From sequence record NC_031113.1: 44,513 nucleotides of DNA; one strand, given 5' to 3'. The position numbers were made by a program, and so were the translations under genes. Positions 12,982 to 44,513 of this stretch are shown one piece after another (position 1 is the stretch's first letter; each line of letters opens with the position of its first letter). The DNA comes from Escherichia phage Gluttony. Under the pieces are notes generated by a model, which worked only from the letters and a program-made list of their open reading frames with translations, had not been told where the DNA came from and ran no database searches.

Positions 12982-13311
12982 ATGAATATCAAAGAAGCAA
13001 TTGAAGTGTTATCTAATGCAATCCGCGGCGAAGCGGGTAAATCCTGGTATTACACAAATGCGGTGGATACTCTGTTATTTGAAGTGTCCAGATTATCGCG
13101 TGCTGAGAAGGAGCTTACCGCGAAGCTGGAATTGCTCAACGGCACGGCAGCAAGCAAGCTGCAAAAACACAATGAAGAAATGGAAGAATACAAAAAACAG
13201 GTTATCCGTCTACGTGAGGAAGGTAAATCCTGGGCGATGATTGCCGAGTTGACCGGAATTAATCAGAGCACAGTGCGCTCCTGGGTACGCAATAATAAAA
13301 CTTCTAAGTAA
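12982..13311 (+). CDS. HTH DNA-binding protein, putative transcriptional regulator
   Basis: C-terminal KSWAMIAELTGINQSTVRSWV helix-turn-helix; coiled-coil middle. Confidence 0.5.
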   Translation: MNIKEAIEVLSNAIRGEAGKSWYYTNAVDTLLFEVSRLSRAEKELTAKLELLNGTAASKLQKHNEEMEEYKKQVIRLREEGKSWAMIAELTGINQSTVRSWVRNNKTSK

Positions 13312-32192: not shown

Positions 32193-34835
32193 ATGGCAGA
32201 TCAGGCAGCAGGCATCACGCTAAAGGCGGATGTTGCACAAATCAGAACGGCGAATACTGTGCTTGATTCATTCGCACAGAAATCCGAGAACACAGAAAAC
32301 AAGGTTAAGAAATTAAACGACACCCTCGGCAAATCCAAAAAGGTGACGAGTGACGCCGCGGGCGGAATGGAGAAGCTGGCGACTGAATCGCAGCGCGCTG
32401 CCGATGGCATGACGAAACAGGAGCGACTTGCCAACAGGTTAGGCATGTCGACCAAAAACCTGGGCTTTGCCTCGCGTAACGCCGCATTCCAGTTACAGGA
32501 TATCGCAGTTACGCTTGAGATGGGGATGCCGGTACACCGCGTTATGCTTCAGCAGTTACCGCAGTTAACTGGGGCGTTCGGGGGATTGGGTAACACGCTG
32601 CGTTATGTGGCGGGATTCCTCGGCCCAGTAGGGATCGGCATTGCCGCACTAACGGCAACGTTAGGCGTCGGCGTGGCAGTTACGACCCGAGCAGAAAACC
32701 AGGTCGCAGCGCTTAACAAGACGCTGGCGCTGTCGGGTAACATTTCCGGCCTCACCGCTAACCAGATCCTTGTGCTGTCTGAGAACGCTGAGCGCATGGG
32801 CTGGTCATTCCGCAAGACGCGAGACACCATTCAGGCACTGGCGGCGGCGGGCGTTAAAGCGGGTGCGGACTTCGGCGCGCTGGCGAAAGTGGTGAATGAC
32901 TTTGCGAAGGCGTCTAATCAGCCGATCTCTGACGTGGTTGAATCCATCTCAAAATTGTCGAACGACCCGGTCGGTGGACTGCGCGCACTGGCGGACCAGT
33001 ATCACGTCGTTACCGAGGCGCAGATCCAGCAGGTGCAATCACTAGTGACGGCTGGTCGAGAAACCGAAGCGGTGGCGCTGGCGAACAAAACCGCCGCTGC
33101 GTCGTTCTCCAGCATGACCAATGAGATCAAGTCCAACATGGGTACGCTCGAGCGGTCTATGAACGTCGTCACATCTGCAGCCAAATCCATGTGGGACGCC
33201 ATCCTGGATGTAGGACGCGCGCAGTCATCGAATGAGTCCGAGATGAAAGCGCGTGAATCCTTGCAGCGCATGACCACGGCTTACTATGCCGAGATGAAAG
33301 CGGTAAACGCTGCCGGTGGGGTGATGACCGAGGCGCAGAAAGCGCGTATTAACATGCTTTACAGCGAACTGGTCGCCCAGGAAAAGGTGGTGGCGTCGCT
33401 CACCCTGCGCAACCGCGCCGAGCGAGACAACGCCAGCGCCGCTGACGAAGCAGCAAAGGCGAACGAGGAGGCAAACCGCACCGCCCGCGACCGCGCCGCG
33501 TTTGAGAAGGAGTACGCAACCAACGCGAAGCGGCGAGCCGACGAGATCGCCCGCCTCAATTTGCTGAATAAGCGCGGTGTTATTAACGAGAAAGAACTAG
33601 CCGAGGCGGTGAAGCAGGTCAACGAGCGCTACAAAGACCCAGCACCGAAAAAGGCGGCGGCAATTCGAGTCGATGCCGGGCTGAAAATGCTGGAAGTCGC
33701 GCGAAGCGAATTAGCCCAGCTTCGTGAGTCTGGAAAGCAGATCGAAGCCAACGCATCGACGCAGACCCGCACGCAACGCGCGCAAGCGGCCCTTAACAAG
33801 CTGATCGCGGACCATGAACAGTTAATCGCGGCGAGCAAAGAAAGGGCGCTGACGGCAGCAGAAAAGCAGCAAATGGCGGAGTTCGAGTCGGTTAAATCGG
33901 TACGCGAGCAGATCGTCGAAGAAGCCAAATTGCTGGACGCGAAAGAGAAGCAGATCAAGGCACACGCCCAGGTCGAAGCATTCATCAAGAACCAGAACGC
34001 CGAGCTAAAAGCCACCGCGGCGGGCTATGCGCTTTCTACTCGCGAAGCGGCTAACCTGCGCGAAGAGTTGCAGCTAATTGACCGCCTTCAGCGTGCCGGT
34101 GCTAACGATACTGATATTGACAAGGCGGTGTATAAGCTGCGTGAGGTTCAGGAAGCACAGACCGGTGCTAACGCCTCATTATGGGATGGATTCAGTCGCG
34201 GGCTTCGCGATAGTGTGGATGAAATGGGTAACGGATACACGCAGATGTCGTCACTCACAAAATTCACGTTCGGTGCTATGCAGGACACGATGAACGAGTT
34301 TTTCGAGACTGGCAAGCTGAACGCAAAAGATATGGTTAAGTCCATTCTGAGCGAATTAATAAAGCTGGCTACCTCGCAGGCGTTCAAGTCCATCGTTAGC
34401 GCTTTCGGTGGCGACGGCGGCAAAAACGGATTGTTCGGCGCTATCTTCTCGGGCCTCACTAAGAATGCGGACGGCGGAGCGTACACCGGAGGCAATCTCG
34501 CGGCCTATTCGGGGCAAGTGGTGAGCCAGCCTACCTTTTTCAGTTATGGCGTCCAGGCGTTCGCTAAGGGCGCTGGGTTGATGGGTGAGGCTGGACCCGA
34601 GGCCATCATGCCACTGAAGCGCGGGCCGGACGGGAAACTGGGCGTTGCCGCGTCTGGCGCAGGCGGTGGTATGGTCGTGACGACTAACGTTTACACGGGG
34701 ACCGGTAAGACGGATACCAGTGTTGGCGGGCCGGACCCACGTACCGCGCAGGCGTTCGGCAAGCAAATCACCGAGGCGGTGAAGGCCGAGATCGTGAAGG
34801 CGATGAAACCGGGTGGTGTACTTTACAAACGATGA
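32193..34835 (+). CDS. Tape measure protein
   Basis: 880 aa, Ala-rich with coiled-coil regions, downstream of the chaperone pair. Confidence 0.85.
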   Translation: MADQAAGITLKADVAQIRTANTVLDSFAQKSENTENKVKKLNDTLGKSKKVTSDAAGGMEKLATESQRAADGMTKQERLANRLGMSTKNLGFASRNAAFQLQDIAVTLEMGMPVHRVMLQQLPQLTGAFGGLGNTLRYVAGFLGPVGIGIAALTATLGVGVAVTTRAENQVAALNKTLALSGNISGLTANQILVLSENAERMGWSFRKTRDTIQALAAAGVKAGADFGALAKVVNDFAKASNQPISDVVESISKLSNDPVGGLRALADQYHVVTEAQIQQVQSLVTAGRETEAVALANKTAAASFSSMTNEIKSNMGTLERSMNVVTSAAKSMWDAILDVGRAQSSNESEMKARESLQRMTTAYYAEMKAVNAAGGVMTEAQKARINMLYSELVAQEKVVASLTLRNRAERDNASAADEAAKANEEANRTARDRAAFEKEYATNAKRRADEIARLNLLNKRGVINEKELAEAVKQVNERYKDPAPKKAAAIRVDAGLKMLEVARSELAQLRESGKQIEANASTQTRTQRAQAALNKLIADHEQLIAASKERALTAAEKQQMAEFESVKSVREQIVEEAKLLDAKEKQIKAHAQVEAFIKNQNAELKATAAGYALSTREAANLREELQLIDRLQRAGANDTDIDKAVYKLREVQEAQTGANASLWDGFSRGLRDSVDEMGNGYTQMSSLTKFTFGAMQDTMNEFFETGKLNAKDMVKSILSELIKLATSQAFKSIVSAFGGDGGKNGLFGAIFSGLTKNADGGAYTGGNLAAYSGQVVSQPTFFSYGVQAFAKGAGLMGEAGPEAIMPLKRGPDGKLGVAASGAGGGMVVTTNVYTGTGKTDTSVGGPDPRTAQAFGKQITEAVKAEIVKAMKPGGVLYKR

Positions 34836-34869: not shown

Positions 34870-35469
34870 ATGTCACAAGGTACAATCACACTAACGAAAG
34901 GAAGTAAGACCGTCACGGGCGCGGGAACGGCGTTCCTTAGCGAGATCGGGAAGGTACTCGTATTCGCCCGCATCGACGGCAACGACTACACCGGCAAAAT
35001 TGCGGCATTCAACTCGAACACGGTCATTACTCTGAAAGATAACTGGGCTGGGCCAACGAAATCCGGTGCGGCATATGAGCTAATCGAAGCACACGACCCG
35101 CGATCAAACGAATGGCCATATTACTGGCACATGCAATTGCAGGGCGGTGGCGACGTGCAGTTAGCTTTCCGGTCGGAGGAATTGCAATTCGGTAATGGCT
35201 ACGGACAGAACATCGCGGACGGCCCGAACGCCGAAACGAAACAGTTCCCCGTGCAATTCGTCGGGCTGACTACGGACAAATGGTGCAATCCTAAACTGGT
35301 TTACAACTTCCTTCGCGGTCACTTCGTAAAACCGTTTGTCGTCACCGCGCCGGATGGCGAAACAGGTTTATTCGTGGTCGAGCGTTCGAGCTTGTCGTAC
35401 ACGGACAACGGGCACTACACGGCAACGGTATCCGCCACCCTTAAGACTGCTATTGGATTCGTAAGATGA
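34870..35469 (+). CDS. Minor tail protein with lambda gpM-like C-terminal domain and a fibre-like N-terminal extension
   Basis: QFGNGYGQ resembles lambda M RFGDGYSQ as recalled; N-terminal ~70 aa resemble the tail fibre N-terminus. Confidence 0.65.
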   Translation: MSQGTITLTKGSKTVTGAGTAFLSEIGKVLVFARIDGNDYTGKIAAFNSNTVITLKDNWAGPTKSGAAYELIEAHDPRSNEWPYYWHMQLQGGGDVQLAFRSEELQFGNGYGQNIADGPNAETKQFPVQFVGLTTDKWCNPKLVYNFLRGHFVKPFVVTAPDGETGLFVVERSSLSYTDNGHYTATVSATLKTAIGFVR

Positions 35470-36997: not shown

Positions 36998-37605
36998 CCA
37001 CATTTAAATTATACGGCGTTTTAGGACGTCGATTCGGTAAAGTGCATAAGCTGGACTGCTTCACTCCGGGCGAGGGTATTACCGGCCTGTGCGTGAAGTT
37101 ACCCGGCTTACAGGACTTTCTAATGTCAGCCCACCTGGACAATATGATGTTCAAGGTGCGCAAAGGCGACCACACGATGACCGGCTATGATGAGCTGGGT
37201 GAGTTCCACGGCAACCGCGTCGTCACCATCGCGCCGGTTATGACTGGCGCAAAAAGAGGGTTGGGACAATTGCTGGCGGGTGTCGCGATCGTAGTGGCGT
37301 CGTTCTATACGGGCGGACTTGCTACTGCCGCTTTCGGGGCTTCGGCTGCAACCGCTGCCGCTATCGGGACGGCGACGTTTTCGTTCGGGATGTCGATGGC
37401 GCTGGGTGGCGTTATGCAATTGCTGTCGCCACAACCGAAAGGATTGCAGACAAGGCAGGACGTGGATAACAAAGCGTCGTATGCGTTCGGAGGCCCAGTA
37501 AACACTACCGCGCAAGGCACGGCTCTTGGTGTATTATGGGGCGAGCGTGAGATCGGCGGCGCTATTATTTCAGCCGGAATCGTAACCGAGGACTTGAACG
37601 AATGA
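36988..37605 (+). CDS. Tail assembly protein, lambda gpI-like
   Basis: Gly/Ala-rich hydrophobic C-terminus; position before the J-like gene. Confidence 0.65.
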   Translation: MAMTTFKLYGVLGRRFGKVHKLDCFTPGEGITGLCVKLPGLQDFLMSAHLDNMMFKVRKGDHTMTGYDELGEFHGNRVVTIAPVMTGAKRGLGQLLAGVAIVVASFYTGGLATAAFGASAATAAAIGTATFSFGMSMALGGVMQLLSPQPKGLQTRQDVDNKASYAFGGPVNTTAQGTALGVLWGEREIGGAIISAGIVTEDLNE

Positions 37606-40600
37606 CGATTATCTACGACGTCACAGGGCATAAAGGCGGCGGCGGCAAACAGCACACCCCACAGGAGACGCCAGATAGCCTGCATTCGCTGGCTAAAATC
37701 CGCATCTTGCTTGCGCTGGGGGAAGGGGAATTCGAAAGTATTACCAGCGCCAGCGAATTGCGGCAGCGTGTTTACCTTGATGGAACACCGATCCAGAACG
37801 CGGACTTGTCCGAAAACTTCCCCGGCGCGCGGGTGGAGTTCCGCCCAGGCACACAGCACCAGGACGTGATCCACGGATTTTCAGCGGTGGAAAGTGAGCA
37901 ATCCATCGGTGTAAAACTGGAAAACGGCACGCCGTGGGTGCGCCAGATTAACGACACCAGTTTGGACGCCGTGCGCATTCGCATCGGCATTCCGGCCCTG
38001 TACACAAACGAAGATAATGGCGACCTGGTGGGCGGGCGCATCGACTATAAGATCGTTGTGTATACGGATAACGCCGACCCGCGTGAGTTCAGATTCGCCG
38101 CCGTTGGTAAAACAATGTCGCTGTATGAGCGCGACCACCGCATCGAATTACCGCCGAACGTGAATACCGGCTGGCGCGTGGAGGTGCACCGCATAACGGC
38201 AGACTCCACATCGGCGAAAGTGGTTAATGATATCCGGGTGCAGTCCATCACTGAGATTATTGACGCCCGCCTGCGTTACCCGCTAACCGCGCTGTTGTTT
38301 GTGGAGTTCGACGCCAAAGCGTTCCAGAACATCCCGCGCGTGTCCATCAAGTGCAAAGGCCGCAAAGTTCTAATACCGAACAACTACGACCCGATTAATC
38401 ATACCTATTCCGGGGACTGGGACGGCACGTTTAAACGCGCATGGACGGATAACCCTGCGTGGCACTGGTACGATATTTGTATTACTGAGCGCTTCGGCCT
38501 CGGTCGGCGTATCAAACCGCAAATGTTAAACCGGTACGCGCTCTACCAGATTGCGCAGCGCTGCGATCAGTTGGTCAGCGACGGCAACGGTGGTCGAGAA
38601 ATCCGCTTTAAGAATGATATGTACATTCAGTCACAGACGGATGCCTGGACCGTGCTTAAGGATTTAGCCGCCATCTTCGCCGGAATGACCTGGTGGGGCA
38701 ACCAGATGTTGAATATCGTCAGTGACCAACCGGTCGCAGCAGTGTCGCACACTATCACCAACGCCTCGGTTATTGATGGTCGATTCGACTACGCGTCCGG
38801 TAGCCAGAAAACTCGGTATTCCACATTCGCGGTAGCATACGGCAACCCGAAGAACCACTATGAAGATGCCATCGCAACGGGGCAACGTGTCGAACTGGTA
38901 CGCCGCCATAAGATTAACCGTCTTGATATAACGGCGATCGGCTGTACGCGTGAGTCAGAAGCGCAACGACGTGGGCACTGGGCGCTAATCTCCAACCAGC
39001 TTGACCAGCAAGTTAGCTTTAAGGTGGGCATGGAGGGACTTTTCTTTATTCCTGGTAGCGTAGTCGCGATCGCCGATACAAACATTTCTGGCGGCTTCGA
39101 GACACGCGGCGGTCGCCTGTTGTCGGACCCTGGCACGCGTACCGTGCTTAACACGGACAGCGAAATCACATTCCGCCCAGGTGATAAATTCCTGGTACGC
39201 ACCGATAGTGGTAATGTAGAGACTCGCGAGATCGCCAGCGTCAACGGCAACAAGGTTACGCTAAAAACCGCACTGGACGCCGACCCGATTCCTGATCAGC
39301 CGTTTTGCGTCGATGGCAACGATATCCAGTTGCAGAAGTTCCGCATCACCGACCTGGAATATGACGACTCTACGAGCACTTTCTCGGTGCGCGGGATTGA
39401 ATACAACGATAGCAAATATGATGCCGTTGATAATGGCGCGCGCCTAGACCCGGGCATCTTTACGCAAGTGCCTGACGGGGTAATGAAGGGGCCGGAATCC
39501 GTGACCATCACCCCGTCGCAGATTTCATCGCAAGGACAGCTAATCACCAACGTGGATATTGTATTCCCTCCGGTGAAGGATGCCGTGGTGTATGAAATCC
39601 AGTGGAGGCGTACCAGCCTTCAGAATATGGAAATCCAGTGGGGTAACGACTGGGTGAATATCCCACGCACGGCGTCGAACGGCGCGCACATCCCTAACGT
39701 GTTCTCCGGTAACTACCAGGCACGCGTCCGCGCGATCGGTATGGGCGAGATTTCATCTCCGTGGGTGTCGTCCGCCATCACGCCGGTGGAAGGTCGTCTC
39801 GGTGGGCTTAACGCACCAATCATCACCAACGCTATTTCGGGCCTTCACCAGATCTTGTGGAAGTGGAACCACAACAACGCCGCTACTGATATCTCGTACA
39901 CCGAGCTTGAAGTGCGCAAGACCGGTGAGACTGAATGGAAATTCCTTACCAACGTCCCATATCCGGGGGCGGAGTATGCGCAAACATCGCTGGAGTTCGG
40001 AATTTACCAGCAGTTGCGCGCCCGTGTAGCGGATAAAATCGGCAACCGGTCGGACTGGTCGGCCCCGTTTGAAGGGCAGGTGAGTGACAAAGTTGACGAG
40101 TACATGAAGGGGCTTGATGACGAGTTCTTGACTTCCGAGGATGGTAAACACTTCCAGGAAGCTATTAACACGATCCCGCAAGGCATTTATGAGTCAATGC
40201 TCACCGACGCCCAGCAGCTATTCAACGCCCGCGCCGAGTACAAAGGGATTTATGCGGAAATCAAGGTGACGTATAACGTGGCGGCGGACGCCCACAAGGC
40301 GGTCGCTCAACTGGAGACGTTGATCGGCACGCGACTTGATGACGCGGAAGCTGCGATCCGCACGTTGCAGACCGCGCAGAGCACACAGGAACAAGCGTTC
40401 GCCCAGTACCAGCAAACTGTTGCCGCTAAGTTCGGGGAACAGGAAGCCGCCATCCAGCAGGTACAAACGGCAACCGCAGACGTGGCGGGAGCGCTGGCGG
40501 AATATAAGACCCAGGTCGCTACACAGTTCGGTCAGCAGTCCGCCGCTATCGAGCAGAAGATGACGTCCTCGTTTAACCACTCTGGTGGTAGCGCCACGTA

Positions 40601-41021
40601 TAGCCTTAAGGCTGGCGTGACATATAACGGGACTTATTATGATGCGGGTATGCAGCTTTCCGTTGTGACGTCTGGCAACGCGGTTAAATCGCGTATTGCG
40701 TTCAAGGCGGACCAGTTCTACATCATGCATCCGTCCAATGGGACGCTGTCGTCTGCGTTTATTGTGGACGGTGGCGCGGTGTATATCGACACGGCACGCA
40801 TCAAGAACGCGTCCATCAACTTCGCGCAGATAACAGACACGCTGCAATCGAATAACTACGACGGCAGCACGCGCGGCTGGCGCTTAGGGAAAGATGGAAC
40901 GTTTATCAACCTGGGCACCGGTAGCGGCGGCGGGATGAAACAGACGAACACAAGAATCAGCGTGAAGGACGGAAACGGCGTTCTCCGCGTGCAGATTGGT
41001 GAGCTTACTGGTAGCTGGTAG
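37602..41021 (+). CDS. Central tail fibre / host specificity protein, lambda gpJ-like
   Basis: 1139 aa; N-terminal third resembles lambda J as recalled (YSGxWDGTF, YxIxQxCDQ, DGxGGxExR). Confidence 0.85.
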   Translation: MTIIYDVTGHKGGGGKQHTPQETPDSLHSLAKIRILLALGEGEFESITSASELRQRVYLDGTPIQNADLSENFPGARVEFRPGTQHQDVIHGFSAVESEQSIGVKLENGTPWVRQINDTSLDAVRIRIGIPALYTNEDNGDLVGGRIDYKIVVYTDNADPREFRFAAVGKTMSLYERDHRIELPPNVNTGWRVEVHRITADSTSAKVVNDIRVQSITEIIDARLRYPLTALLFVEFDAKAFQNIPRVSIKCKGRKVLIPNNYDPINHTYSGDWDGTFKRAWTDNPAWHWYDICITERFGLGRRIKPQMLNRYALYQIAQRCDQLVSDGNGGREIRFKNDMYIQSQTDAWTVLKDLAAIFAGMTWWGNQMLNIVSDQPVAAVSHTITNASVIDGRFDYASGSQKTRYSTFAVAYGNPKNHYEDAIATGQRVELVRRHKINRLDITAIGCTRESEAQRRGHWALISNQLDQQVSFKVGMEGLFFIPGSVVAIADTNISGGFETRGGRLLSDPGTRTVLNTDSEITFRPGDKFLVRTDSGNVETREIASVNGNKVTLKTALDADPIPDQPFCVDGNDIQLQKFRITDLEYDDSTSTFSVRGIEYNDSKYDAVDNGARLDPGIFTQVPDGVMKGPESVTITPSQISSQGQLITNVDIVFPPVKDAVVYEIQWRRTSLQNMEIQWGNDWVNIPRTASNGAHIPNVFSGNYQARVRAIGMGEISSPWVSSAITPVEGRLGGLNAPIITNAISGLHQILWKWNHNNAATDISYTELEVRKTGETEWKFLTNVPYPGAEYAQTSLEFGIYQQLRARVADKIGNRSDWSAPFEGQVSDKVDEYMKGLDDEFLTSEDGKHFQEAINTIPQGIYESMLTDAQQLFNARAEYKGIYAEIKVTYNVAADAHKAVAQLETLIGTRLDDAEAAIRTLQTAQSTQEQAFAQYQQTVAAKFGEQEAAIQQVQTATADVAGALAEYKTQVATQFGQQSAAIEQKMTSSFNHSGGSATYSLKAGVTYNGTYYDAGMQLSVVTSGNAVKSRIAFKADQFYIMHPSNGTLSSAFIVDGGAVYIDTARIKNASINFAQITDTLQSNNYDGSTRGWRLGKDGTFINLGTGSGGGMKQTNTRISVKDGNGVLRVQIGELTGSW

Positions 41022-41057: not shown

Positions 41058-41360
41058 ATGGCATTCGGTATCGCAACGTGGGACGCGCAAGGACGCCCAA
41101 ACAACTACGGCATTAAACCGGTAAGCGTGATCGGAAGGATTCATCTTGCGGAAGGACAAAAATCAGGCGCATGGTCATTCCCTGTACCGGCGGGGATGAA
41201 GGTCGGATACGTGGTCGCACTGGATAAAGGCGCGGTCGGGCCAGGCCGCAGAATAACCGCCAGCGGGAACACTATCACGGTTTCCGCGGCAAGTGCGGTA
41301 GGTGGCGGGGTTTACTCCGCATCTGAATGTGACGTTATTGTTTTTGTGGAGCGAGCATAA
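41058..41360 (+). CDS. Hypothetical tail-associated protein, 100 aa
   Basis: ORF track; position after the J-like gene. Confidence 0.4.
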   Translation: MAFGIATWDAQGRPNNYGIKPVSVIGRIHLAEGQKSGAWSFPVPAGMKVGYVVALDKGAVGPGRRITASGNTITVSAASAVGGGVYSASECDVIVFVERA

Positions 41361-42034
41361 TGGCTAATTACGGCGCGTTGATTGACTTACCAAACGGCAA
41401 CCCGTTTATCACGCCAGAATCGACGCCGTTTTGTCTATTCCGCCGTGTGGTTGTTGGGTCTTCGGCTAACGGCACTGCGCAGTCGGCGGCTGCCGATATT
41501 AATTTGGGCGGTGACTACCCTGCAATAGCGTTTGTGAAAACTACGCACACCGCCCAGCCGACCGTCGTAGGGTCTTCTCGCGTTGGTAATGTGGTGAAGG
41601 TGAGCGCCAGCAATCCATTCGGGCAAGGCTTCACGATGACGGCTTACATCTTTGCCATATTCCCACAGACCCTTCCGCGGTGGGGCTTCGCTATTTGGGA
41701 TAAGACGGGGAAGCTAGTGCTTACTAATGAGAGTCGCGTACTGAGCGATTTAGTTACCGTCGGGTCGCCTGGCGCTAACGGGGGGATTAACATTGATCAG
41801 ACGCTAAACGGCAGCTACGCCGTCGCACCGGGAATATTGGGGTCTACGCTGATCCGGTTTTTTGTGCAGGGCCAGCCGCAGGTAATATCGGTAACGGCGT
41901 ACACGGGGGCCAGATTTGATGGGTCGCGAACGCGTATATCGGCAGCGTCGTCAGGGAACGCCACGGGGGATGTGGTGGGGTATACTAACAACGGCAACGC
42001 GATTATGGCGATTAACACTGCCAATTATGATTGA
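41360..42034 (+). CDS. Hypothetical tail-associated protein, 224 aa
   Basis: ORF track; followed by a terminator. Confidence 0.45.
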   Translation: MANYGALIDLPNGNPFITPESTPFCLFRRVVVGSSANGTAQSAAADINLGGDYPAIAFVKTTHTAQPTVVGSSRVGNVVKVSASNPFGQGFTMTAYIFAIFPQTLPRWGFAIWDKTGKLVLTNESRVLSDLVTVGSPGANGGINIDQTLNGSYAVAPGILGSTLIRFFVQGQPQVISVTAYTGARFDGSRTRISAASSGNATGDVVGYTNNGNAIMAINTANYD

Positions 42035-42036
42035 AG

Positions 42037-42060
42037 AAAGCCCCGAAAGGGGCTTATTTG
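42037..42060. terminator. Bidirectional intrinsic terminator
   Basis: AAGCCCC-GAAA-GGGGCTT with T-rich flanks. Confidence 0.6.
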
Positions 42061-42272
42061 CAGGTTGTGCTTTTGAAATGGTCTACAGACACGTACTGGA
42101 AGCTAAACGGATAACCCGCCCTTAGCATTTTATGCCCGGAGAAGTCCGCAACACCATACACAGGTACCGCATAATCCATGCCGCTATTCTGGTATGTGGC
42201 GTCGCAGACTTTAGCGGGCATGTTGGCACAACCGGACAAAAGAACCGCACAAATCATAATTAAAGTTTTCAT
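42054..42272 (-). CDS. Moron: small secreted lipoprotein, candidate superinfection-exclusion (receptor-blocking) protein
   Basis: MKTLIMICAVLLSGC signal peptide with lipobox; AGGAGA RBS; own promoter and terminator; opposite strand between tail genes and tail fibre. Confidence 0.65.
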   Translation of the reverse strand: MKTLIMICAVLLSGCANMPAKVCDATYQNSGMDYAVPVYGVADFSGHKMLRAGYPFSFQYVSVDHFKSTTCK

Positions 42273-42303
42273 GGTATCATCTCCTATATTTGGTCGAGTT
42301 TCA

Positions 42304-42331
42304 GTATTACACCGCTCAACCAGGATTGCAA
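42304..42331 (-). promoter_or_regulatory. Promoter for the lipoprotein moron (TTGCAA-16-TAATAC) containing AATTGGTTGCA
   Basis: Hexamer spacing read on the minus strand. Confidence 0.45.
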
Positions 42332-42352
42332 CCAATTTATGAGGATTTAGCT

Positions 42353-44131
42353 ATGGCAGCGGGCACACTATCCGTAACGAATAACAGCAAGGCGGTTGTA
42401 GGGGTCGGCACAACGTTTACCTCGTTTAACGCTGGCGACTTCTTAACGCTGGTGGTAGGACAAGTCCCCTACACCGTAGCAATCGCGTCCATTGAAAGCG
42501 AAACCGCGCTTACGCTGGTGTTGCCGTTCGACGGCCCAACGGCAACCGGCCTCGCGTGGGATGGCGTTAAGCGCGATACCATGTCACTGGCGACGATGGG
42601 TGTAACCGTACAGGCACAGAAAGCATTGCGCTTGATGATTGCAGATGAAAACAACTGGCGTGCAATCTTCGGCGACGCTGAAGAAATCACCGTGACGCTG
42701 CCTAACGGGCAGGTAATGCAGGGTATGTCATGGGGCTACCTGTCGCAGTTGATGAAACAGATCGACCCCGTTGAGATGCTAAACCTGCAACAACAAGCCG
42801 CCGCATCGGAAGCAGCCGCGCAAGGATACCGCGACCAGGCCGAAGGCATTAAAACCGAGACGGCAGGCATCCGCGACGACACCAGGTTGATTAATGCTGA
42901 TACGCTGGCGATCCGCAACGACACCGATGCCATCAGGACGAATACCAACCAGATTAAATCAGATACGCAGGCCATTAAGGACCAGACGAACCAGATCAAG
43001 ACGGACACCGGCGTTATTCGCGACGAAGCCAATACCGCGAAGACGGACGCGCAATCCGCCCGCGATGCTGCGCTGGGATACCGGAACGAGGCCGAACAGT
43101 TCAAGAATGAGATCGACCCGTCGAAACTTCTGGCAAAGGCCAACAACCTTAGCGACGTTGCCGACCCCGCGGCAGCGCGCGACCACTTAGGCATCGGGCC
43201 TGACGACACCCTTAACCTTGGTGGCCTGGTAACGTCCGGCAGTATCTCCGCGGGCCGCAACACATGGGATGGGTCTAACTGGGGGAGCCAGGGACTTCTC
43301 GCCTCATTAGTGGTCCTATACCCGGACGGAAGCTCAGCCCCAGGCTTATACGTGCGAAAATCCAACGGCGACAGCGGATATGCGGCGGGATGGTTGTATA
43401 ACGAGAACAGTATCAGTTGGGCTACTAACGCGCGTATTGCGGGCTTTCAGTTCCGGTCCCCTAAAGGCGCGATGGGGTATAACCAGCTATGGTCAGAGGC
43501 TGTGGTGCGTGCGGACGACTTCATGGCACAGAATGGCGCGGAAAACTATAAGTCGTTAATCGCGGGGGCCGCTACAACGCAAGGTCACGGATACTCGGGC
43601 GGTGTCTCGTTCGGGATAATGACAACTGGCATAAACAACTGGCCCCGGGCGCAGATCTCGATCGGCACAGCAGACCGTGACGCCGCTGGGAATATGGCTT
43701 CGCAGATGCACTTCCGCTTTAATGAATATGGGCAGATTTCTTACACAGGGCCACTGGGGACGGGGTCGTTCCAGCAAGTACCTGCGTCGGATCGCAACCT
43801 GAAGCATGACATTGCCGATGACGCAAGCAGCACCGCCTACGACAATATCAAGGCTTTGCGGTTCCGCACGTTCGTATTCAACAACGATGAACAGGAACGG
43901 CAGCGTCGCGGTATTATTGCGCAGGAAGCGGAAGAAATCGACCCGCTGTATGTGAAGCACCGCGTGTATAACAATCACGAATTAAATGGGCCTCTGGTGC
44001 ACCAGCTTGAACTGGATACGACACCGCTGTTACTCGACACTATGCGAGCGTTGCAGGATACGATTAAGCAGGTGGAGGATTTGAAGGCGGAGATCGCAGC
44101 GATGAAGCAGGCGGAAGAGTTGAAGAAATAA
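42353..44131 (+). CDS. Tail fibre with DT-rich repeat shaft and C-terminal intramolecular chaperone (Peptidase_S74-like) domain
   Basis: Start at MAAGTLSV with GAGGA RBS; repeats DT..I..; C-terminal SDRNLKHDIADDASSTAYDNIKALRFRTFVFNN. Confidence 0.75.
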   Translation: MAAGTLSVTNNSKAVVGVGTTFTSFNAGDFLTLVVGQVPYTVAIASIESETALTLVLPFDGPTATGLAWDGVKRDTMSLATMGVTVQAQKALRLMIADENNWRAIFGDAEEITVTLPNGQVMQGMSWGYLSQLMKQIDPVEMLNLQQQAAASEAAAQGYRDQAEGIKTETAGIRDDTRLINADTLAIRNDTDAIRTNTNQIKSDTQAIKDQTNQIKTDTGVIRDEANTAKTDAQSARDAALGYRNEAEQFKNEIDPSKLLAKANNLSDVADPAAARDHLGIGPDDTLNLGGLVTSGSISAGRNTWDGSNWGSQGLLASLVVLYPDGSSAPGLYVRKSNGDSGYAAGWLYNENSISWATNARIAGFQFRSPKGAMGYNQLWSEAVVRADDFMAQNGAENYKSLIAGAATTQGHGYSGGVSFGIMTTGINNWPRAQISIGTADRDAAGNMASQMHFRFNEYGQISYTGPLGTGSFQQVPASDRNLKHDIADDASSTAYDNIKALRFRTFVFNNDEQERQRRGIIAQEAEEIDPLYVKHRVYNNHELNGPLVHQLELDTTPLLLDTMRALQDTIKQVEDLKAEIAAMKQAEELKK

Positions 44132-44133
44132 GA

Positions 44134-44157
44134 GAGGGGCCATACAGCCCCTTTTTA
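44134..44157. terminator. Intrinsic terminator after the tail fibre gene
   Basis: AGGGGC-CATACA-GCCCCT followed by TTTTT. Confidence 0.65.
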
Positions 44158-44513
44158 GTTTGAGTTTTCCCAGTCCATTTTGCGCCGCACCAGCGGGCTT
44201 TCGTAATATTCCTTTCCTTCCACTTCCACCAAAGGCCAGTCGTTCACAATCACGTATGGCTCCGCGATATCCTCAATCACGCCGTGCGCGCTTTGCGGCC
44301 CTAACGACACACCAACCAGGATAACACCGGCAACGCGACGGGTCAGATATTCGCGAGCGCAACGTGCCTCAACCAGCCCACGACGGATGCCGCTGGTGGC
44401 CTTAACCTCGTAGGTCCATACGGCATCGATCACATGCTCGCGGAAGTCGGGACCGGACTTCACCTTGCGCTTGCCTACCATGATAATATCGCCGCGGTCT
44501 ATGGTATTGGCAC
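44155..44513 (-). CDS. 3' part of the same wrap-around gene (44387..44513 duplicates 1..127)
   Basis: ORF track 44155..44481; the Met at 44481 has no RBS and the frame stays open upstream in the other repeat copy. Confidence 0.5.
   Translation of the reverse strand, partial: ANTIDRGDIIMVGKRKVKSGPDFREHVIDAVWTYEVKATSGIRRGLVEARCAREYLTRRVAGVILVGVSLGPQSAHGVIEDIAEPYVIVNDWPLVEVEGKEYYESPLVRRKMDWENSN
44387..44513. repeat. Second copy of the 127-bp terminal direct repeat
   Basis: Identical to 1..127. Confidence 0.9.

Follow-up and report, generated by a model that had tools for sequence, protein, structure and literature searches.

The window, the whole stretch of 44,513 nucleotides analysed here (Escherichia phage Gluttony, NC_031113.1), is a complete, circularly assembled Dhillonvirus genome with a unique length of 44,386 bp. 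Positions 1-127 are an exact direct repeat of 44387-44513, which is a typical overlap of a circular assembly. A minus-strand gene starting at 44155 (phrog_10558; 191 aa in phage Pride) is split by the end of the window and continues at its start. Compared over 14 kb, the genome and that of Pride are about 100% identical. A lambda-like tail tip module contains gpJ, which is followed by an RBP locus, the cor gene and a tail fibre gene, and this gene order is the same in Pride, JLBYU60, and Bas83-85. The fibre gene is the last gene of the late plus-strand block and is convergent with the early genes (Table 1). In another part of the window, a 109-aa ORF on the plus strand (12982-13311), just upstream of the helicase-primase gene, matches phrog_9366, 'transposase' (integration and excision). 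This label is odd for a virulent Dhillonvirus, and the product is probably a small DNA-binding protein.

The ATG at 42353 has a GAGGA RBS 8 nt upstream, leaves no overlap with the divergent cor gene, and is the GenBank start in Pride (ANY30029.1). The ORF list offers a longer alternative, 42290-44131, beginning from a TTG. Judged from the sequence, the true start is the ATG at 42353 rather than the TTG. The sequence-only reading had placed the start of the feature at 42850, which lies about 500 nt inside the gene and therefore left out the anchor domain at the N-terminus and three shaft heptads, the first ones; the true gene is 42353-44131. The Dhillonvirus phages Lust and Pride carry the gene with 100% nucleotide identity over its whole length, annotated as 'tail fibers protein'. 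Nucleotide identity is 92.5% to the Bas84 gene and 84% to those of Bas85 and Bas83, and phrog_1980, a tail fiber family, matches aa 1-591 (E 1.2e-142). Antisense and overlapping ORFs within the fibre gene were without family matches, and neither tRNAs nor Rfam families were found in the window.

The hairpin at 44134-44156 follows the fibre stop codon, at the junction with the convergent early gene on the minus strand. A second GC-rich hairpin with T/A runs is found at 42036-42058, at the junction of the RBP gene and cor. Both hairpins look like bidirectional intrinsic terminators. The cor and fibre genes would thus lie between two convergent junctions flanked by these terminator-like sites. 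No convincing sigma-70 promoter for the fibre gene was found in the 80-bp spacer between cor and the fibre gene.

Table 1. Features of the fibre gene and the upstream tail module (aa numbers refer to the protein of each row's gene; domains from the anchor downward are those of the fibre).
Feature	Position	Strand	Remarks
Tape measure protein	32193-34835		Upstream tail module
Minor tail protein, gpM/Dit-type	34870-35469	+	199 aa; directly after tape measure gene; core aa 84-176
gpL-, gpK-, and gpI-like proteins			Follow the gpM/Dit-type gene
gpJ	37602-41021		Tail tip module
100-aa Ig-like protein and 224-aa RBP candidate ('hand-like')	41058-42034		Downstream of gpJ
Cor lipoprotein	within RBP locus 41058-42272	-	Lipobox LSGC
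Lateral tail fibre gene	42353-44131	+	592 aa, 63.9 kDa precursor; coordinates include stop codon
N-terminal anchor domain	42353-42784	+	aa 1-144; almost invariant in 37 homologues; putative attachment role
Coiled-coil shaft	42785-43120	+	aa 145-256; 16 heptads; periodicity, AF2 helix, shaft-length comparison, Lpp profile matches
Linker with conserved fibre motif NLSDVADPAAARDHLGIG	43121-43222	+	aa 257-290; N265, L266, D271 invariant (37 homologues)
Distal receptor-binding tip, allelic part	43223-43786	+	aa 291-478; putative binding role; identity to other fibres collapses here
Intramolecular chaperone (IMC) / Peptidase_S74 domain	43787-44128	+	aa 479-592, 13.2 kDa; predicted scissile bond Ala478|Ser479
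Catalytic motif S479-D-R-N-L-K484	43787-43804	+	Ser nucleophile and Lys general base, by homology
GC-rich hairpin, T-runs on both sides	44134-44156	.	Terminator scan matches both strands; consensus match only

The N-terminal part of the fibre is related to another protein of the same phage. Fibre residues 1-73 match PDB entry 23gd_B, 'Distal tail protein gp20' (E 8.8e-6), and the gpM/Dit-type protein of Gluttony is about 95% identical to this entry. Within the window, fibre aa 1-70 are 38% identical to the product of 34870-35079 (E 3e-9). By these alignments, the first 73 residues of the fibre and the N-terminal domain of the distal tail protein of Gluttony are paralogous regions. A further match of the N-terminus of the distal tail protein is to PyoF13, the side fibre of the F2 pyocin (25ve_A, E 1e-4). 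The OB domain at the N-terminus of the F2-pyocin side fibre is an attachment domain. The matches suggest a docking relationship between Dit and the fibre. Since the two N-terminal domains are paralogous, a mixed Dit/fibre collar around the tail tip may be envisaged. Such a docking mode has not yet been described for lambda, T5, or the F-pyocins, and we regard it as rather doubtful. The literature was searched for a paper on PDB 23gd (Dit gp20) and for a cryo-EM structure from a Dhillonvirus, and neither was found. Apart from the tail anchoring of the fibre, the analysis raises no new biological question.

Following the anchor, 16 consecutive heptads run from aa 145 in an unbroken register (LQQQAAA, SEAAAQG, YRDQAEG, IKTETAG, IRDDTRL, and so on to FKNEIDP). 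The first positions of the heptads are, in order, L S Y I I I I I I I I I A A Y F, and the fifth positions are A A A T T T T T T T T A A A A I. In coiled-coil terms, position a is Thr/Ala, d is Ile (the core d position also covers Leu, Tyr, Phe, and Ala), e is Lys/Arg, and g is Asp, Asn, or Glu, mainly Asp. The repeat greatly exceeds chance expectation: the motif [ILVFAY][KRN]x[DNE][TA]xx has 11 matches, compared with a mean of 1.2 and a maximum of 6 in 5000 shuffles, and the period-7 hydrophobic power was never equalled in 2000 shuffles. TRF found no tandem repeat at the DNA level, and the periodicity is thus confined to the protein. In the AF2 model (monomer, 37-sequence alignment), aa 139-253 form a single unbroken helix of 115 residues with a core pLDDT of 69-85.

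The length of the shaft among homologues follows the same unit. The distance from the DPVEM anchor to the NLSD anchor is 92, 99, 106, 113, 120, 127, or 134 residues, with 127 in the Gluttony fibre, and in every one of the 115 homologues having both anchors the shaft length differs from that of Gluttony by a multiple of 7 (115/115). This comparison of homologues is the strongest evidence for the coiled coil. Over aa 196-244 there is also a weak match of the family profile to Lpp, a trimeric coiled coil. Because of the one-register heptads, the AF2 helix, and the multiples-of-7 lengths in homologues, we conclude from sequence and model that the shaft is an alpha-helical coiled coil of about 112 residues, with a length of about 16-17 nm if fully helical. 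The shaft would be three-stranded by analogy with the obligate trimers of the IMC family (3GW6, 4UW8, and 7DC3) and from the profile similarity to Lpp.

The strict 7-residue period, with a/d/e/g chemistry typical of coiled coils, argues against a beta-structured shaft (triple beta-helix or beta-spiral), a fold that is common among fibre shafts and that a repeat rich in beta-branched Thr and Ile might otherwise suggest. A coiled-coil-to-beta fold switch reported in the central fibre of the F7 pyocin (PMC12874032) gives the beta shaft some precedent. However, AF2 gives one continuous helix with pLDDT up to 85, the length changes occur in whole heptads only, the profile resembles Lpp, and the AF-Multimer model of the Bas85 orthologue was described as a coiled coil (PMC11990801). 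A beta-structured shaft is thus extremely unlikely in our judgement. More speculative still than the mixed collar is a metastable Thr/Ile-rich shaft, for which the coiled coil that switches fold in the F7 pyocin would be the parallel.

The sequence-only reading had noticed repeated DT..I.. units around 42850-43080 and had taken them for a trimeric shaft. The run IKTETAG/IRDDTRL/INADTLA/... is present as claimed, starting at nt 42848 (aa 166). The repeat is real, but the heptads run wider than the extent it had been given, over aa 145-256 (nt 42785-43120). As for the shaft itself, the heptad alpha-helical coiled coil agrees with that interpretation through the AF2 helix, the whole-heptad indels, and the Lpp profile matches.

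The NLSDVADPAAARDHLGIG motif of the linker also occurs in DT57C LtfA and, in repeated form, in the short tail fibre gp92 of PDB 9zd7. Similarity to most Dhillonvirus fibres ends at about 45-50% of the gene, at both the nucleotide and the protein level. The tip of Gluttony has amino-acid identities of 89% to Bas84, 76% to Bas85, and 74% to Bas83. The region between the shaft and the chaperone had been proposed as the likely receptor-binding domain, and this fits its allelic variability and its being the same allele as in the O16-antigen-targeting fibres of Bas83-85. The AF2 model of the full-length monomer has a pLDDT of 51 and is informative for the helix and the IMC only, with the tip predicted at low confidence.

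Outside Bas83-85 this allele is rare. A search with the tip alone gave 11 matches at E<=1e-3 among 1.84 billion cluster representatives, 8 of them genuine fibre proteins. These genuine matches include fibres with a T7-type N-terminal domain or with Collar domains. Since tip matches occur on other fibre scaffolds, the tip and the IMC move as one cassette, which spans siphovirus, podovirus-type, and collar-bearing scaffolds. The three other proteins matched (P0123, P0125, and P0126), of VCBS/cadherin-like composition, each match tip aa 383-446 (64 residues) 9-16 times. Their similarity to the tip was set aside as probably compositional, these very long proteins consisting of near-identical tandem repeats of about 100 aa. 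P0123 and P0126 were inspected as near-perfect tandem repeats, and P0125 was judged alike from its match pattern.

The C-terminal domain matches Pfam Peptidase_S74 (PF13884) at aa 479-534. The match scores 44.9 bits (gathering score 22 bits; E 1.4e-11) and extends over positions 1-57 of the 58 in the profile. The sequence-only reading had recognized an intramolecular chaperone signature here and had proposed an HMM search for this family; both elements of the signature are present, SDRNLKHDI at nt 43787-43813 and FRTFVFNN at nt 43862-43885. A single-sequence search matched DT57C LtfA (8HQZ chain d) at E 8e-12. Against PDB, the family profile matched LtfA (4e-51), the MyRF ICA 7DC3 (1e-9), 8JOV, phage S16 gp37 6F45 (3e-5), and the GA-1 IMC 3GUD (0.08). 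T5 pb1 and endoNF gave no family-profile sequence match at E<=0.1, and the fold search alone reaches them. Both AF2 models are most confident in the C-terminal domain (pLDDT 71-92). With the model, Foldseek found 7DC3 (E 1.4e-4, TM 0.60-0.64) and endoNF 3GW6 (probability 0.98), and the predicted model has the IMC fold of an alpha/beta body with a C-terminal helix, of the kind that makes up a trimeric coiled coil in this family.

S74 domains were originally described on endosialidases, and O-antigen-dependent small siphoviruses often use tailspikes (PMC11990801), so that the domain might mark an enzymatic tailspike or depolymerase, for example an endosialidase-like spike degrading capsule or O-antigen. 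Yet Pfam and PHROGs found no catalytic or beta-helix domain, S74 being the sole Pfam match, and every named PHROG match is 'tail fiber' or 'tail protein'. Furthermore, the region from the shaft to the IMC has just about 190 aa, and the closest characterised relatives are fibres with T5-like tips, which PMC11990801 distinguishes from tailspikes. We therefore consider a tailspike very unlikely and a fibre with a C-terminal chaperone the preferred reading.

Across 37 divergent homologues with otherwise unalignable tips, S479 and K484 never change, and S479-DRNL-K484 aligns with the S-x4-K of DT57C LtfA. The pattern S[DG]xxxK is found in 111/120 homologues, and the 9 exceptions end in PF25670 instead. 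A Ser/Lys pair is used by T5 pb1 and endoNF (PMC4690869). In T5, cleavage occurs at Thr1263|Ser1264, Lys1269 activates the serine, and the serine leaves with the chaperone (PMC4690869). The fibre of JLBYU60 was said to carry an 'intramolecular autocatalytic chaperone' (PMC12309495). By analogy with these systems, the C-terminal domain of the Gluttony fibre most likely cuts itself off. The predicted products are a mature fibre of 478 aa (50.7 kDa) and a fragment of 114 aa (13.2 kDa). The sequence-only reading had expected release of the last ~130 residues, but 114 aa is the length from the conserved Ser to the end, and ~130 is the T5 value.

The invariance of Ser and Lys in 37 homologues across unrelated tip alleles, and their presence in 111/120, would be hard to explain without catalysis, and this disfavours a domain that is retained uncleaved as a permanent distal end, a trimerisation knob, or part of the binding surface. 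A retained domain would be in line with its shorter length than in T5 (114 vs 133 aa), and none of the papers examined gives cleavage data for a Dhillonvirus fibre. It would also be in line with the alignment of the 37 homologues, in which no invariant Arg lies upstream of S479; no counterparts of T5 Arg1250 and Asp1239 could be located. In T5, both are upstream 'folding sensor' residues, and Arg1250, contributed by a neighbouring chain, completes the active site. On the other hand, the uncleaved T5 protein is unable to compete for the receptor (PMC4690869). A retained domain is, in our view, quite unlikely, and self-cleavage is preferred.

The nine Dhillonvirus-type fibres with the other C-terminal end (9/120; P0080, P0087, P0088, P0096, P0098, and others) have the same anchor and shaft followed by PF25670 (Phage_tail_C_2). 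Because these fibres carry PF25670 and are without S-x4-K, at least two C-terminal solutions exist among Dhillonvirus-type fibres.

The closest characterised tips give a clue to the ligand. Bas83-85 depend on their lateral fibre for passage through the O16 O-antigen of E. coli K-12 (PMC11990801). GtrABS glucosylation blocks this crossing, and rough strains are infected without the lateral fibre (PMC11990801). By analogy, the ligand of the Gluttony fibre is most likely an O-antigen, probably O16-like as in Bas83-85. The source of Lust and Pride, bladder microbiota rather than an O16 host, counts against an O16 ligand. The tip identity of 74-89% does not guarantee a shared glycan specificity, and the specificity may differ from that of Bas83-85 since 11-26% of the tip residues differ.

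The neighbouring RBP locus has a different relationship. With JLBYU60, Gluttony shares 99-100% identity in the Ig-like protein and the RBP candidate and 90% in Cor. JLBYU60 was reported to be FhuA-dependent (PMC12309495). The locus is thus FhuA-type in Gluttony, as in JLBYU60, whereas Bas83-85 carry a different, LptD-type locus beside the same fibre allele. This combination in Bas83-85 indicates that the fibre and RBP alleles assort independently.

Taken as a whole, and with the mechanism below included, the best explanation of 42353-44131 is the lateral (side) tail fibre of a Dhillonvirus siphophage, which we consider highly probable. Three chains would associate, probably first at the IMC (aa 479-592), whose terminal helix and alpha/beta body would trimerise and template the folding of the intertwined tip (aa 291-478). 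Once the tip is correctly folded, each chain would be cut between Ala478 and Ser479, with Ser479 activated by Lys484. The 13-kDa chaperone trimer would then depart, leaving the mature 478-aa fibre with its tip unmasked for the receptor. The trimeric coiled coil of 16 heptads (aa 145-256) would hold the tip about 16 nm from the tail, and the conserved N-terminal domain (aa 1-144) would anchor the fibre to the tail tip. In infection, the fibre would reversibly bind a surface glycan, most likely the O16 kind of O-antigen, allowing the phage to cross the O-antigen layer. The central fibre and the RBP would then engage the terminal porin. The identity of the RBP locus with that of JLBYU60 makes FhuA the probable porin. 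Such a two-step scheme is established for small siphoviruses (PMC8594841, PMC11990801). Of all this, the analysis itself establishes the layout of the domains, the geometry of the heptads, the S74 homology in sequence and in fold, the conserved Ser/Lys pair and the relationships among alleles, whereas trimerisation, cleavage, unmasking, the ligand and the site of attachment are inferences.

The fibre resembles T5 pb1 and DT57C LtfA in its C-terminal IMC with S-x4-K and its coiled-coil proximal shaft (PMC4690869, PMC10713586). The T5 and DT57C fibres undergo autoproteolysis N-terminal of the Ser, bind O-antigen, and are facultative for infection (PMC4690869, PMC10713586). The Gluttony fibre is, however, far shorter (592 vs 1396 or 1076 aa), and so is its IMC (114 aa vs 133 aa in T5). 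Its tip sequence is without detectable similarity to T5 pb1, and by single sequence DT57C LtfA aligns to the IMC and a weak part of the tip only. The N-terminal anchor also differs: an LtfC-type collar gene was not seen, and it is the Dit of Gluttony itself that the N-terminus resembles. The chaperone domains of endoNF, the GA-1 neck appendage (3GUD), and MyRF are also among the closest known systems. The cargo of the endoNF chaperone (3GW6) is a sialidase beta-propeller with a triple beta-helix stalk, and that of the MyRF ICA (7DC3) is a eukaryotic transcription factor, whereas in Gluttony the cargo would be a fibre tip.

The finding is correct but already known, as the gene is that of deposited sequences and the literature describes the architecture for an orthologue with per-domain identities of 76-94%. 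Its value is mainly one of annotation, with a domain map, a predicted Ala478|Ser479 site, and expected masses for a 'tail fibers protein'. The combination of the O16-type tip allele of Bas83-85 with an FhuA-type central RBP helps host-range prediction and fibre-swapping engineering, because the fibre has clear module boundaries (a whole-heptad shaft and a tip and IMC cassette). No difference in the gene was detected from Lust (KX534338) or Pride (KX534341, ANY30029.1), whose records are without a domain description. The lateral fibre Gp29 of Bas85 (RuthEpting) was described as having an N-terminal coiled coil, a T5-like tip, and a C-terminal IMC (PMC11990801; Humolli et al. 2025). The fibres of Bas83-85 share with that of Gluttony the gene position, the five-part architecture, and a length of 592 aa (598 in Bas84). 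By domain, they agree with the Gluttony fibre at 90-97% of the amino-acid positions of the anchor, 76-84% of those of the shaft, 74-89% of those of the tip, and 94-97% of those of the IMC.
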